A stretch of 64,000 nucleotides of DNA from a phage. Positions within the stretch are counted from its first letter, which is position 1, and every line of letters starts with the position of its first letter. The stretch is taken from sequence record PZ452594.1; one strand, given 5' to 3'. Under the pieces are notes generated by a model. It did no database searches and was not told where the DNA came from. It saw only the letters and a list, made by a program, of their open reading frames with translations. Positions 8,782 through 40,483 of the stretch are shown piece by piece. The position numbers were made by a program, and so were the translations under genes.

Positions 8782-8985
8782 TTAATTCATATTGCGTTTA
8801 ATAACTTCAGCAACTTCTAGTAGTTCATCTTTAGTTGCGGTGTCGGATTGAATTTTATCTCTAATATCCTTAAAGCGGTTTTTAAACTCTTCGGCTTCTC
8901 CCATATCGAAAAAGCGTTGAATGATTCTATATTCTCGATGAACTGCTTTATCAAAAAGTTCTAAATTTACTCTGTATGATTTCAT
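8782..8985 (-). CDS. rIIA.1-like small protein (67 aa)
   Basis: ORF track; position between 39 and rIIA as for T4 rIIA.1. Confidence 0.6.
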
Positions 8986-9010: not shown

Positions 9011-9040
9011 ATTATACCACATCCTTGTGGTAAAGTAAAC
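9011..9040 (-). promoter_or_regulatory. T4-type early promoter upstream of rIIA.1/rIIA
   Basis: GTTTAC (rc 9035-9040), 18-nt spacer, TATAAT (rc 9011-9016); overlaps gene 39 stop. Confidence 0.45.
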
Positions 9041-10860
9041 TACTGGCTCATCCATTCTTTGCGAAGGTCAGCATTATCTCCCATGAGCATTTCAAAAAGC
9101 TCTTTCCAGTTCTCAGGAAGTTTAACAACATCATATACTGGGTTTTGAATCATCTCACGATATTCAGATTTTTCTAAAGAGCCAAGTCCCTTAATATAAC
9201 GGATGCTATGTTTAGGTAGAGCATCTTTAGCACTCTCATATTCAGCGACTGTATAAAACCATTCTTGTTTTTTACCGACCTGAGCGATGATTACAGGAGT
9301 TTTGACAAAGCGAATTCTTCCTTGTTCAAACAGTTCTGGCCAATTACTAAAAAATCCGAGCAGAGAAGGATAAATGCTTCCTAGACCATCATGGTCAGCA
9401 TCAGTCATAATAGCAATATTATGATAATTCAAGTTTTCAGCTTTTTCACCGAGAACTAGACCAGTGATTGCGCAAATATCAAATAGTTCTTTGTTTTTAA
9501 GCATATCTGCATAAGACATACCCCAACTGTTGAGAACTTTACCACGTAATGGATAACCACCATGAAGTTCTTTATCACGAACATCAATAAGATATCCGAT
9601 AGCAGAATCACCCTCAGTCAAGAAAAGAGTAGTGTCAGCATCTTTACCACAAAGATTCGCTTTGATATGTTTATGAACCTTAGCTTTAGAAGCCTTTTTA
9701 GCTGCTTTAGTTTCTGCTGCTTTTTCTGCCGCCAATTTACGAGCCAAAGCAGCTTCGATAATCGGCATTAGAATTGCTTCATTATTTAGAATAGCACGTG
9801 AAATCTTTTTAGCATCAAGCTGAATATGACTACGGATTTCACCAAATGGAGAAGTCAAACGCTCTTTAGTTTGAGAATCAAATCGCATGTTTTTCATATC
9901 ACGAACAAACATAACGATAGTCAAACATTCTTTGACACGCGCTTTAGTCACATCAATTTTGAACTTACGTTTGATTTGTGGAATAAGGTCTTCACAAATA
10001 TCATCCATAACACAGTCAATGTGATGGCCACCATTCTTAGTGTGGATGTTATTCACATAAGTTAATTGACGAAATCCATCCGGTGAACGACCAACCGCAA
10101 TAGAACAATTTTCTTGTTCTTGAACGATAGCATGCTCATCATATTGGCGTGCATATTTCTTAAAATTGCCCTGAACCTTTTTACCATTAAAGGTAAATTG
10201 AATATCAGGATAAACAACAGCAAGTGTCTGGAGACGATCTAGTGTAATGTCAAGATAAACTTGGGACAGCTCATTAGTTTCAAATGACATAAAATCAGGA
10301 ATGAAAGTAACACGAGTTCCTTTCCATTTTCCTGGAATAGTTTCCCATGATTTATTTTCCATGCCATTTGAACAACGAACTACAATATTATTTTGACCAT
10401 CGCCAGTTTCACCGACAAACATCACAGAAAAAATGTTAGTTAAACTAGAACCAACACCATTCATACCACCGGTGACACGTTCTTTATCATCACCAAAGTT
10501 ACCACCCGCTTTTGGAATAGTCCAAGCAGCAACTGGACCAGGAATTTCTTCACCGGTAGGTGTTTTAACCATCGCTTGTGGAATACCACGACCGTTATCT
10601 TCAACTGTTACTTGATTGTTTTTGATGGTAACATTAATTTTATTCGCGAATTTAAACTTAGTACGAATACCTTCATCTACTGAGTTATCGATAATTTCAT
10701 CAATAAGCTTAACAAGACCAGGTACATACTGAACACTTTCCCATTTACCAAACAGAAAGCGCTCATGCATTTCATTAGCAGAAGAGCCAATGTACATGCC
10801 ACTACGCTTTTTGATATGTTCAATATCGCTCAGAATTTTAATTTCATTCTTAATCATCAC
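9040..10860 (-). CDS. 39: DNA topoisomerase II large (ATPase) subunit gp39, uninterrupted (606 aa)
   Basis: GHKL motif EDNGRGIP and TOPRIM LFLTEGDSA; one continuous ORF spanning what are genes 39 and 60 in T4. Confidence 0.92.
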   Translation of the reverse strand: MMIKNEIKILSDIEHIKKRSGMYIGSSANEMHERFLFGKWESVQYVPGLVKLIDEIIDNSVDEGIRTKFKFANKINVTIKNNQVTVEDNGRGIPQAMVKTPTGEEIPGPVAAWTIPKAGGNFGDDKERVTGGMNGVGSSLTNIFSVMFVGETGDGQNNIVVRCSNGMENKSWETIPGKWKGTRVTFIPDFMSFETNELSQVYLDITLDRLQTLAVVYPDIQFTFNGKKVQGNFKKYARQYDEHAIVQEQENCSIAVGRSPDGFRQLTYVNNIHTKNGGHHIDCVMDDICEDLIPQIKRKFKIDVTKARVKECLTIVMFVRDMKNMRFDSQTKERLTSPFGEIRSHIQLDAKKISRAILNNEAILMPIIEAALARKLAAEKAAETKAAKKASKAKVHKHIKANLCGKDADTTLFLTEGDSAIGYLIDVRDKELHGGYPLRGKVLNSWGMSYADMLKNKELFDICAITGLVLGEKAENLNYHNIAIMTDADHDGLGSIYPSLLGFFSNWPELFEQGRIRFVKTPVIIAQVGKKQEWFYTVAEYESAKDALPKHSIRYIKGLGSLEKSEYREMIQNPVYDVVKLPENWKELFEMLMGDNADLRKEWMSQ

Positions 10861-10884
10861 TTATCCTCGTTTGGTTTCGGGAAT

Positions 10885-10909
10885 ATTATACTCCGGTAAT
10901 CATAAAGCT
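10885..10909 (-). promoter_or_regulatory. MotA-dependent middle promoter upstream of gene 39
   Basis: Minus sense aGCTTTA (MotA box), 12-nt spacer, TATAAT (rc 10885-10890); 25 nt upstream of gene 39 start. Confidence 0.45.
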
Positions 10910-10926
10910 AAAGGCCCGAAGGCCTT

Positions 10927-11187
10927 TTATTTAAAACGGATAGTCGAATCCTTGAAGAATAGACCAGAACACACGGTTCCTTCTACTTTCTGCCCAGTAG
11001 GTCCAATAGCACGAAATCCAGTATGCTGGAAATCATTTTCAGAGCAACCGAACCAGTTATATCCAGTGATTTCAATATTCGTAAAACCACTTGAAGATAA
11101 AACTTTGGTTGCATTATCAGCATCAGTACATCCTGCTAAAGACACTGCTAATACTAATGCTGCGATAGAACGATTAACATATTTCAT
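10927..11187 (-). CDS. predicted lipoprotein (~86 aa)
   Basis: Signal peptide with lipobox LAGC (MKYVNRSIAALVLAVSLAGCTDADN...); start moved to ATG. Confidence 0.55.
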   Translation of the reverse strand: MKYVNRSIAALVLAVSLAGCTDADNATKVLSSSGFTNIEITGYNWFGCSENDFQHTGFRAIGPTGQKVEGTVCSGLFFKDSTIRFK

Positions 11188-11192
11188 AATTT

Positions 11193-11564
11193 TCACTTAA
11201 ATTTAATGGCTTGAAGAAGACTAATAACTCTCAAGCGACTTCTTTCATCTTTAACTGTAAAAGAAAGAGGGTCACCAGATTTCATAGTAATGGTACATTC
11301 AAAATCAAAATCTTCTGTAACTTCTTCGAAGAAGTCAAATTCTTCATCATAAATTAGAACATTACTCTGACAACTATGAAGAATTTTTCCATCATTTCCA
11401 GATGCTGTACTAATCATTGTAACATTATGACCTTTCATATCTTCAACGATAAATTCACTAGTCAATATTACAGCATTAATAGAACTATTCCTATTACTAG
11501 CAGAAAGTAGATATTTCTGTTCTTCACCTTCACGAATGCAATATTTCTTACCGATTTTAAACAT
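11193..11564 (-). CDS. hypothetical protein (123 aa)
   Basis: ORF track; region corresponds to T4 39.1/39.2/goF/cef/motB cluster. Confidence 0.5.
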   Translation of the reverse strand: MFKIGKKYCIREGEEQKYLLSASNRNSSINAVILTSEFIVEDMKGHNVTMISTASGNDGKILHSCQSNVLIYDEEFDFFEEVTEDFDFECTITMKSGDPLSFTVKDERSRLRVISLLQAIKFK

Positions 11565-37483: not shown

Positions 37484-39166
37484 TTAAACCATTACAGTAA
37501 ATCGACCAACTTTCTTCATTTGAAGATGCTGACCATATTCTTGCGGGTCATGGTCTTTATGTGAAATTATAAAAACATTAGTGTTTTTCATTGAATTTAT
37601 AATATTAGCTACACCTTTAATACCTTCGGCATCAAATGACCCATCAAACACTTCATCGAGTATTAATGTACTAATACTAACACCAGATACAATAGAAGCA
37701 ATATCACGCCAAGTAAATAAAAGAGCAATATCAATTCGTGCCTTTTCACCTTCACTAAATGAAGCATAACTAAAATCTTCACGACCACGGGATTTAATTG
37801 TCTCATTAAATTCTTCATCTAATGTAAACACATAATCCGCTTCCATTATTTTAAGATAATGGTTAATCTGCTTATTAAATAATGGAATGTACTTTTTAAT
37901 AATAGCACCTTTAATACCAGAATCTTTGAGCATATCAGTCAAAATTCCTCGGTGGTATTTTTCCATTACTAAATTAGTTTTTGTCTTAACAATTTTATCA
38001 AGTTCTTCTTGAAGCAGTGCTATTTCATCGGCATGGTCAATAAACTCAGATGATGCTTTTTCTATAGCCGCTTTAACCTTTTTAGCTTTATCTACCGTCG
38101 TGATTAGAGATTGCTTTTTATTGCGAATATCATTTGCCAACGACTGTTGGGTTTTAATATTATCTCGGTATTCATCAACAAGAACTTTTAAATTATCACG
38201 ATGTGTTGAAAGCTGTTCAAATGAATGTGTGCATTCAGAAACTTTATCTTTAATTTTAGAAACAACTTTATCACCGGAACTTAATTGTGACAAACAGGTT
38301 GGGCATAATCCACCTTCGTGATACATATTAATGACTTTATTATACGAGTCAATTTTTGATTTAATTAAAACTGCTTCTTGACCGATTTTATTAAATGCAT
38401 CAGTCGGATCTTCGTCTAAAACAATATTAACTAATCTTTCATTAGCTTCTTCTATTTCCGATTTTAGCGTTCTAGCTTCTTTTGCCAAATCATCATACAT
38501 ATTCTGCAAACGAGTAAGATTGTCACCCGTTAATTTTTTCTGGCGTTCAACGTTATCATTATATATTTTAATTTGTTGGATAATACTATCTTTTTTAACA
38601 TCAAGCACTTGGTTTTGTGAATTTAATTCACGTATTAGTGCTTTATTAAGCTTATCCATTTCAGCTAATGTTCCTACCTCGAGCAGGTCTTCCACAAGCT
38701 TTCTTCGCGCAGGGGTCGACAAACCCATGAAAGGGGTATACCCTGCTGTACCAAGGACAACAATCTGCTTGAAACTGGCATATGACATTCCGATAAGCTG
38801 TTCAAATTCTGCTTGGAAATCTTTACTGCTGGCAGATTCATTAAGACGTGTACCGTTAACGGTGATTTCGAAAACGTTTGGTTTTTGTCCTCTTTTGATA
38901 TAGTACTTTTTCTCATCATATTCCATCCACAGTTCAACTAAAAGTTCTTTCTTATTTGTGCTGTTTATTAATTGACCTTTCTTTACATCACGAAATGGCT
39001 TACCAAAAAGCCCAAATGTGATGGCTTCTAACATAGTAGACTTACCACCGCCATTTCGTCCAGTAATAAGAGTTTTTTGAACCTTATCTAATTGAATGTC
39101 AACTCCATTTTGACCAACTGACATTATATTTTTATATTTTACTCTATTAAGTTTAAATGATTTCAT
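37484..39166 (-). CDS. 46: recombination endonuclease subunit gp46 (Rad50/SbcC-like, 560 aa)
   Basis: Walker A GRNGGGKST, central coiled coil with CPTC zinc hook, C-terminal signature/Walker B; recognised as T4 gp46. Confidence 0.93.
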   Translation of the reverse strand: MKSFKLNRVKYKNIMSVGQNGVDIQLDKVQKTLITGRNGGGKSTMLEAITFGLFGKPFRDVKKGQLINSTNKKELLVELWMEYDEKKYYIKRGQKPNVFEITVNGTRLNESASSKDFQAEFEQLIGMSYASFKQIVVLGTAGYTPFMGLSTPARRKLVEDLLEVGTLAEMDKLNKALIRELNSQNQVLDVKKDSIIQQIKIYNDNVERQKKLTGDNLTRLQNMYDDLAKEARTLKSEIEEANERLVNIVLDEDPTDAFNKIGQEAVLIKSKIDSYNKVINMYHEGGLCPTCLSQLSSGDKVVSKIKDKVSECTHSFEQLSTHRDNLKVLVDEYRDNIKTQQSLANDIRNKKQSLITTVDKAKKVKAAIEKASSEFIDHADEIALLQEELDKIVKTKTNLVMEKYHRGILTDMLKDSGIKGAIIKKYIPLFNKQINHYLKIMEADYVFTLDEEFNETIKSRGREDFSYASFSEGEKARIDIALLFTWRDIASIVSGVSISTLILDEVFDGSFDAEGIKGVANIINSMKNTNVFIISHKDHDPQEYGQHLQMKKVGRFTVMV

Positions 39167-39181
39167 TTTGTATCCAATTGT

Positions 39182-40036
39182 TCACAATGAAGAAAATTCT
39201 TTAACTAAAGCCTGTAATGAAGCCTCTATTGGATATCCATTCTTAACTAACATTTTCCTAAACATTACATGTTTAGGACGATTATATGATATCCACAATT
39301 CATACAATTTATCTTTATTATCCCAATGATAGCCTTTTCGTCGAGATGCTATATGAGCTTTTCTAATCTCCGGATTTTTCCAACTAGCAGCTACTGAATT
39401 TGATATAGCTATTTTATATTCAGGTTTTGATAAAGCAGCACGAACAGCCTTTTGGTGTTTAATTTTATTTTCTTCGTTATTAAACCATTCCCTTGAAGCC
39501 ATTGAAATTTTTTGTTTTGTTTTAAAATTATTTAATCTTTCTTTATTATCTTTCCTATTTTTTGCTACTGAAAAATATTTTAATGCCCTTTCTCTAGCAG
39601 CATTTCTATTTTGCGGATTTGAATAATACTGTTGAAGCCTTTTTGATATTGTGTCACTTACATCTTGTTTTATAAAACTATATTCAGCAGCTATTAAATC
39701 AACTTCGGCTAAAGATAAATTTTTATATGTTTTTCCTGACATCATTCTATTTAAAGCATTTAACATTTTTCCATTTTTACCTTTTGCTAATAAGAAGTGT
39801 GCTTTAAAATGATTAAAATGACTTAAATTAACTAAATTCCATGTAGATTTTAAATATTCAGGAAATATTGATTTAGGAAGCACGTGGTGTGCTTCCGTTT
39901 TACCTGGAGTTTTAACAGTTGAATTCACAGAAATAAAATTAATGTAAGACTTGGCGTCTTCTTCACTCAACGCTAATTTTTCAACTAATTCCTTTATTAA
40001 AAATTCATCATTAATGTCAAGTTTAAAATTCTTCAC
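39182..40036 (-). CDS. HNH-family homing endonuclease-like protein (284 aa)
   Basis: HNH motif EAHHVLPKS...NLVNLSHFNHFKAH; basic C-terminal region; GTG start; lies between 46 and 47. Confidence 0.6.
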   Translation of the reverse strand: MKNFKLDINDEFLIKELVEKLALSEEDAKSYINFISVNSTVKTPGKTEAHHVLPKSIFPEYLKSTWNLVNLSHFNHFKAHFLLAKGKNGKMLNALNRMMSGKTYKNLSLAEVDLIAAEYSFIKQDVSDTISKRLQQYYSNPQNRNAARERALKYFSVAKNRKDNKERLNNFKTKQKISMASREWFNNEENKIKHQKAVRAALSKPEYKIAISNSVAASWKNPEIRKAHIASRRKGYHWDNKDKLYELWISYNRPKHVMFRKMLVKNGYPIEASLQALVKEFSSL

Positions 40037-40248
40037 AAAAGATTCCTTTTAATGTATCTTTTAGACCATTCTATCATATCATCATAATCTAAAAAGTATT
40101 CATCAAATTCAGCCATGCAAACAACACCTTGTGCTGTTTTTGATGTAATATAAATTATTCCAACATATCTAGAATCTTCTTCGGTATAATCAATGTTTGC
40201 TATGAATTCATCATTAATGTCAAATGTCGAAAACTTCACAGTATGCAT
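40033..40248 (-). CDS. hypothetical protein (~71 aa)
   Basis: Track ORF 40033-40296; start moved to ATG (MHTVKFSTFDINDEF...). Confidence 0.4.
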   Translation of the reverse strand: MHTVKFSTFDINDEFIANIDYTEEDSRYVGIIYITSKTAQGVVCMAEFDEYFLDYDDMIEWSKRYIKRNLL

Positions 40249-40483
40249 CCTTAATACAAGATACAGCCATATCTCGTAATGATTTAGGTGTGTCATTATC
40301 TAAAATGTTGAAGTTAAAAGATACAGCCCAGTCAGTGCAGACCGTGACCTTTTTAATACAATTATCTTCAACCTCTAACGGTTCAAACCAATATTCAATA
40401 ATTTCTTTATGCCCAATATCATCTTTTACTTCGCATTCAAAATGCTGACTCATCATAACATTTTTAAATTCATCAAAAGTCAT
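40220..40483 (-). CDS. hypothetical protein (87 aa)
   Basis: ORF track; ATGA overlap with gene 47 stop. Confidence 0.45.
   Translation of the reverse strand: MTFDEFKNVMMSQHFECEVKDDIGHKEIIEYWFEPLEVEDNCIKKVTVCTDWAVSFNFNILDNDTPKSLRDMAVSCIKDAYCEVFDI

Follow-up and report, generated by a model that had tools for sequence, protein, structure and literature searches.

Gene 39 of a T-even phage is an uninterrupted topoisomerase II large-subunit gene with an unoccupied MobA homing site

Introduction

Does gene 39, which encodes the large subunit of topoisomerase II (Topo II), run unbroken through the phage DNA of record PZ452594.1, and, if so, was it never invaded by the MobA cassette that splits it in phage T4, or has it been restored after an invasion? 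Topo II is composed of two subunits, gp39 and gp52, in phages T2 and T6, but of three in T4 (PMC11461880). The MobA element was described as 1097-1106 nt in length, with 64 nt deleted; its HomR shows 67-81% identity and, in clade 1, has 9 nt more (Manning & Atkins 2022, bioRxiv 10.1101/2022.08.31.505936). According to Bonocora et al. 2011, as related by Manning & Atkins (10.1101/2022.08.31.505936), MobA nicks the uninterrupted T2 gene within the HomR-equivalent segment, some 20 nt upstream of the bypass point, and inserts a copy of the cassette into that gene, T2 being the experimentally shown recipient, while the 50-nt insert shields invaded genomes from re-cleavage.

The DNA analysed here is a stretch of 64,000 nt of that record, hereafter the window, and all coordinates refer to this whole stretch. 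A sequence-only reading of it had proposed that gene 39 is uninterrupted, without the gene 60 split, mobA or bypass element, and has the arrangement of T2/T6-type phages. Here, we delimit the gene, compare it with those of T4, T2, T6 and other relatives, and weigh the possible origins of its continuous state.

Results

Gene 39 is a single reading frame of 605 codons

At this locus the ORF listing gives a lone ORF at 9040..10860 on the minus strand, of 606 aa when begun at a GTG, and the small ORFs listed inside it on either strand are frame shadows. An in-frame TAA directly precedes this GTG (10860..10858), which is the earliest start that the frame allows, and the codon that follows the GTG, as read directly in the sequence, is an ATG (10857..10855) with a GAGGA 6 nt upstream. 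The annotated homologues are, every one, 605 aa long and begin with MIKNEIK. Because of the Shine-Dalgarno spacing and this uniform length, the start was placed at ATG 10857, and GTG 10860 was discarded as an ORF-calling artefact, so that the extent to 10860 in the sequence-only reading is shortened by one codon. The gene therefore comprises 605 codons plus a stop (Table 1), or 606 codons if the stop is counted, the protein being 605 aa, while the placing of both a GHKL and a TOPRIM region in one product holds. The 78 nt upstream of the start, ribosome-binding site included, are identical to T4, and the product matches phrog_543, 'DNA topoisomerase II large subunit', over aa 1-605 with an E of 1.6e-295 (PHROGs).

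Table 1. Location of gene 39, its domains, its partner gene and the adjoining sites in the window
Feature	Position	Strand	Evidence or remark
Gene 52, GyrA/ParC-like subunit, 442 aa	1570..2898	minus	PF00521, E 9.4e-77; Arg-Tyr (RY) dipeptide at aa 116-117
rIIA.1, immediately downstream of gene 39	8782..8985	minus	PF24210 T4_RIIA1, E 2.2e-33
Promoter-like site TTTACT, 17 nt, TG-TATAAT	9011..9039	minus	Candidate in the gene 39/rIIA.1 spacer; 10 of 12 consensus matches, the region's total of matches being no higher than the shuffled expectation
Full-length gene 39 ('60plus39' in RB14)	9040..10857	minus	605 aa + stop; type IIA topoisomerase large subunit, GyrB/ParE-like
TOPRIM C-terminal associated domain, aa 519-604	9046..9303	minus	PF16898, E 4.2e-7; equivalent to the T4 gp60 C-terminus
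Unoccupied MobA homing site, 64-nt parental segment	9376..9439	minus	Breakpoints against T4; identical to T2
Codons G491 (GGT) and L492 (CTA)	9382..9387	minus	Codon comparison: T4 has GGA-UAG, 50-nt gap, GGA-UUA here; window contiguous, no stop
TOPRIM metal-binding core, contiguous	9388..9615	minus	E415 (EGDSA) to D486/D488/D490 (DADHDG)
Transducer domain, aa 250-384	9706..10110	minus	PF00204, E 1.5e-13; QTK loop at aa 329
GHKL ATPase core, aa 47-149	10411..10719	minus	PF02518, E 1.9e-9
Shine-Dalgarno GAGGA	10864..10868	minus	6-nt spacer to ATG 10857

The product unites the ATPase, transducer and TOPRIM regions

Pfam places HATPase_c (GHKL), the DNA_gyraseB transducer and TOPRIM_C all within the one gene 39 product. 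The GHKL (Bergerat) boxes of gp39 read EIIDNSVDE (N, aa 54), DNGRGIP (G1, aa 87) and GGMNGVG (G2, aa 130). The Pfam Toprim model gave no score below an E of 0.001 on gp39; the TOPRIM E...DxD residues E415, D486 and D488 lie in one polypeptide and coincide in position with those reported to form the catalytic motif of T6 Topo II (PMC11461880). In T4, this motif is divided between gp39 (Glu) and gp60 (DxD), whereas gp39 of the window holds both. In a phmmer search of the PDB, the T6 chain 8ylu_C aligned with gp39 from residue 1-605 to 1-605 with 1388 bits and one residue different from the solved structure, and human Topo IIα/β, ParE and GyrB also matched over nearly the full length.

The T4 cassette is absent between two clean breakpoints

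For comparison, T4 gp39 and gp60 were rebuilt from NC_000866, gp60 being joined across the annotated 50-nt gap. Residues 1-473 of gp39 align with T4 gp39 1-473 at 98%, and residues from about 472 to 605 with T4 gp60 27-160 at 96%, no difference from gp60 being left after residue 479. Two terminal stretches of the T4 proteins, the CTE (final 43 aa of gp39) and the NTE (initial 30 aa of gp60), have no counterpart in the window, so that gp60 is shared over the last roughly 128-134 aa (~478-605, corresponding to gp60 33-160). The alignment to T4 gp39 plus gp60 and to T2 gp39, the latter without gaps, thus came out as the sequence-only reading had supposed; its equation of the C-terminal ~160 aa with gp60 is right in that the two align, but only about 130 aa are shared, because the gp60 N-terminus (NTE) is element-derived.

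In the DNA alignment, the window and T4 agree up to a sharp break after window 9440 (T4 3911), and they agree again from window 9375 (T4 2793) onwards. Between these breakpoints the window has 64 nt (9439..9376), against 1117 nt in the T4 reference and 1106 nt in the resequenced T4T. The HomR of the T4 element, 48 nt in length, is identical to the window segment at 35 of 48 positions (73%); after it come GGA-TAG, the 50-nt gap, GGA and 9 more diverged nt. These figures reproduce the element anatomy published by Manning & Atkins (10.1101/2022.08.31.505936). In all, the T4 element adds a 43-aa extension on gp39, the HNH gene mobA, a 30-aa gp60 extension with the diverged HomR, and the 50-nt bypassed gap, none of which is in the window.

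Remnants of the cassette and hidden insertions were searched for across 8.9-11.0 kb. In this interval, tblastn found nothing with the intact T4T MobA (272 aa) and nothing with CTE or NTE, which gave chance matches elsewhere with an E of 0.2 or more, and blastn-short found neither the 50-nt bypass, matched elsewhere only by chance 11-12-mers, nor any part of the whole T4 insert. No HNH ORF, 50-nt gap or in-frame GGA-stop take-off lies within the gene. Three GGA-stop strings do occur in 8.9-11 kb, and were rejected as bypass-like sites: the GGA-TAA is in frame but upstream of the start codon, and the other two are out of frame. The segment at the homing site is of the parental T2 type, an element-type diverged HomR not being present in the window. 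A cryptic insertion, intron or intein in gene 39 was dismissed in view of the gap-free 605 aa against T2, T6 and RB14 and of the lack of any Rfam match, whether to a structured RNA or to an intron, anywhere in the window. The signature of the 'hit-and-run' fused Topo2L of Aeromonas clade 7 was likewise not seen, there being no insertion relative to the parental proteins and no CTE/NTE similarity. The claim of an uninterrupted gene, one ORF with no gene 60 split, mobA or bypass sequence in 8.9-11.0 kb, is thus upheld.

One further difference from T4 lies just before the QTK loop, where codons 326-328 of gp39 in the T4 reference give R-LIR-Q, and the window (9874-9882), T2, T6 and the resequenced T4T give R-FDS-Q. 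In the DNA this is a compensating -1/+1 pair, TTTGATTCT versus TTGATTCGT. It was not accepted as a real divergence from T4, since the frameshift pair occurs only in the old T4 reference and T4T reads FDS; the LIR is most likely an error of the old record and not biology.

The same gene is found in T2, T6, RB14 and most sequenced relatives

The gene aligns without gaps to those of four relatives, with 603/605 identical residues and 96.0% identical DNA for T2, 604/605 and 97.2% for T6, 604/605 and 97.3% for the '60plus39' of RB14, and 604/605 and 98.6% for ADUt. In the records of T2, T6 and RB14, the gene measures 1818 nt and occupies the same map position, and those of T2 and T6 each have a single 605-aa gp39, in agreement with PMC11461880, which confirms the T2/T6-type arrangement proposed from the sequence. 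T173D is the sole substitution in RB14 gp39, and F70L and T173D are the two in T2 gp39. Because only 1-2 aa are changed at 2.7-4.0% DNA divergence from T2, T6 and RB14, the comparison indicates that gene 39 is under strong purifying selection.

The frequency of the uninterrupted state was determined with a junction query of 221 nt (window 9300-9520) that spans both T4 insertion points, and a junction was counted as intact when at least 80% of the query was covered in one place. Such a junction is present in 453 of the 495 matching phage records (~92% of sequenced relatives). The T4 element was found in 43 records, nearly full length in 41, many of these records being T4 isolates or laboratory derivatives. 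Another count, of 506 records at 80% coverage or more, was dropped for the junction count, because T4-type matches had been joined across the 1-kb insert, which makes that figure unusable as a number of uninterrupted genes. The uninterrupted gene 39 is therefore the majority state, carried by about nine in ten relatives, and the split, ribosome-hopping form of T4 is the rare exception; the present locus is an ordinary one.

Neighbouring genes and a Mob-family paralogue elsewhere

Downstream of gene 39 follow a 54-nt spacer, rIIA.1, rIIA and rIIB, and the statement of the sequence-only reading that rIIA.1 directly adjoins the gene is borne out by this short spacer and the Pfam match in Table 1. 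On the upstream side, a GGCC-TTCG-GGCC hairpin and a T-rich tract lie just after the stop codon of 39.1 (10885-10925, minus), and are followed by TTAGCTTTA, 12 nt and TATAAT. We take this TTAGCTTTA-12 nt-TATAAT arrangement, which resembles the MotA-box consensus, to be a candidate middle promoter for gene 39.

The gp39.1 of the window (10927-11196, minus) has an N-terminal signal sequence with a lipobox-like LAGC at its end (LVGC in RB14), which suggests that gp39.1, here and in RB14, may be a small lipoprotein. The gp39.1 of the T4 reference has 65 aa and no signal N-terminus, and this annotation is short because stop codons break the upstream frame in the T4 record; a 1-nt indel relative to T4 is located in 39.1 at window 11117 (T4 5588). 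Between 39.1 and 39.2 lies a 123-aa ORF (11193-11564, minus) that belongs to phrog_622, of unknown function, and has weak similarity to the goF-like family phrog_13003 (E 7e-7). A 372-nt CDS is at this position also in RB14 (RB32ORF005c), T6 and ADUt, whereas the T4 reference annotates no gene between 39.1 and 39.2.

At a distance from gene 39, gene 46 (37484-39166, SbcC/Rad50-like) and 46.1 (40033-40296, DUF5487) flank a free-standing HNH homing endonuclease of 284 aa (39182-40036, minus; phrog_655 'homing endonuclease', E 7.8e-45). This protein, on which Pfam gave no match, shares 29% identity with MobA across 203 aa and accounts for a tblastn match at 39.4-39.9 kb. A mobA gene relocated nearby was excluded, as tblastn gives just this distant paralogue about 29 kb off. 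The gene is present in only 72 of the 518 matching phage records, e.g. PP01 and SHFML-26, while T4 and most relatives lack it and match the query in two pieces that cover 38-39% of it. The phage is thus without mobA in gene 39, yet hosts a Mob-family paralogue elsewhere.

Discussion

Based on these comparisons, we regard the locus, with a probability of about 95%, as the ordinary, uninvaded 'parental' topoisomerase II large-subunit gene of T-even phages. On this reading, the MobA homing-endonuclease/bypass cassette of roughly 1.1 kb either never entered gene 39 or has left nothing behind in it. GHKL ATPase, transducer and contiguous TOPRIM are all on the single 605-aa polypeptide, which should form a two-subunit enzyme with gp52 (1570-2898) that would need neither gp60 as a third subunit nor translational bypassing. 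The uninterrupted state as such is already known from Manning & Atkins 2022 (10.1101/2022.08.31.505936) and the Nat Commun 2024 study (PMC11461880), and also from Bonocora et al. 2011, as cited in that literature. The locus has little weight as a discovery, since a protein one residue away has already been purified, assayed and solved by cryo-EM. For annotation, one 605-aa topoisomerase II large subunit should be called from ATG 10857, without a ribosomal-bypass exception.

An unbroken frame could also be a restored one: the MobA/bypass cassette, formerly present in this lineage, would then have been lost either through precise excision ('hit and run') or through gene conversion, with a co-infecting phage that had not been invaded as the donor. 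Such a course has precedents in the fused hit-and-run ORFs of Aeromonas phages, and repeated gain and loss of the element has been argued (Manning & Atkins, 10.1101/2022.08.31.505936); T-even genomes are, moreover, mosaic, the best match of the present one being ADUt (98.1%) in the gene 39 region and PP01 (99.6%) around 39-40 kb. However, no CTE or NTE remnant is left, the HomR region is parental and T2-identical instead of the 73%-identical element type, and no indel is seen relative to T2, T6 or RB14. Had an uninvaded relative cleanly restored the gene by recombination, no mark of this would be left; as it stands, secondary loss is unsupported, and we consider it very improbable. If traceless loss by gene conversion did occur, the phage would be one snapshot of a cycle of homing-element gain and loss within Tequatrovirus. 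It is scarcely credible that the frame is unbroken only through an error of assembly or annotation, or that it belongs to a pseudogene which is inactive but has stayed open, given the same 1818-nt gene in more than 450 independent phage records, the intactness of all catalytic motifs and the mere 1-2 aa changes at 2.7-4.0% DNA divergence noted above.

Because the 64-nt target segment is identical to the empty MobA site of T2, we predict that the phage would be open to invasion by the cassette when it shares a host cell with a phage that encodes MobA. With its MobA target intact, it could be used as a naive recipient in homing crosses.

T6 is among the closest known systems. The domain order, the E415/D486/D488 metal site and the neighbourhood of 39.1, 39, rIIA.1 and rIIA are all the same in T6 as in the window, and T6 gp39 (PDB 8YLU, 8YO5, 8YOD; Nat Commun 2024, PMC11461880) differs by Q526H only, at 2.8% of nucleotides and with no structural difference. 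We infer that gp39 and gp52 form, by ordinary translation, an A2B2 type IIA topoisomerase like those of T2 and T6. T6 Topo II relaxes DNA (PMC11461880), and from the 604/605 identity to that assayed protein the gp39 enzyme of this phage would be expected to have the same ATP-dependent DNA relaxation activity.
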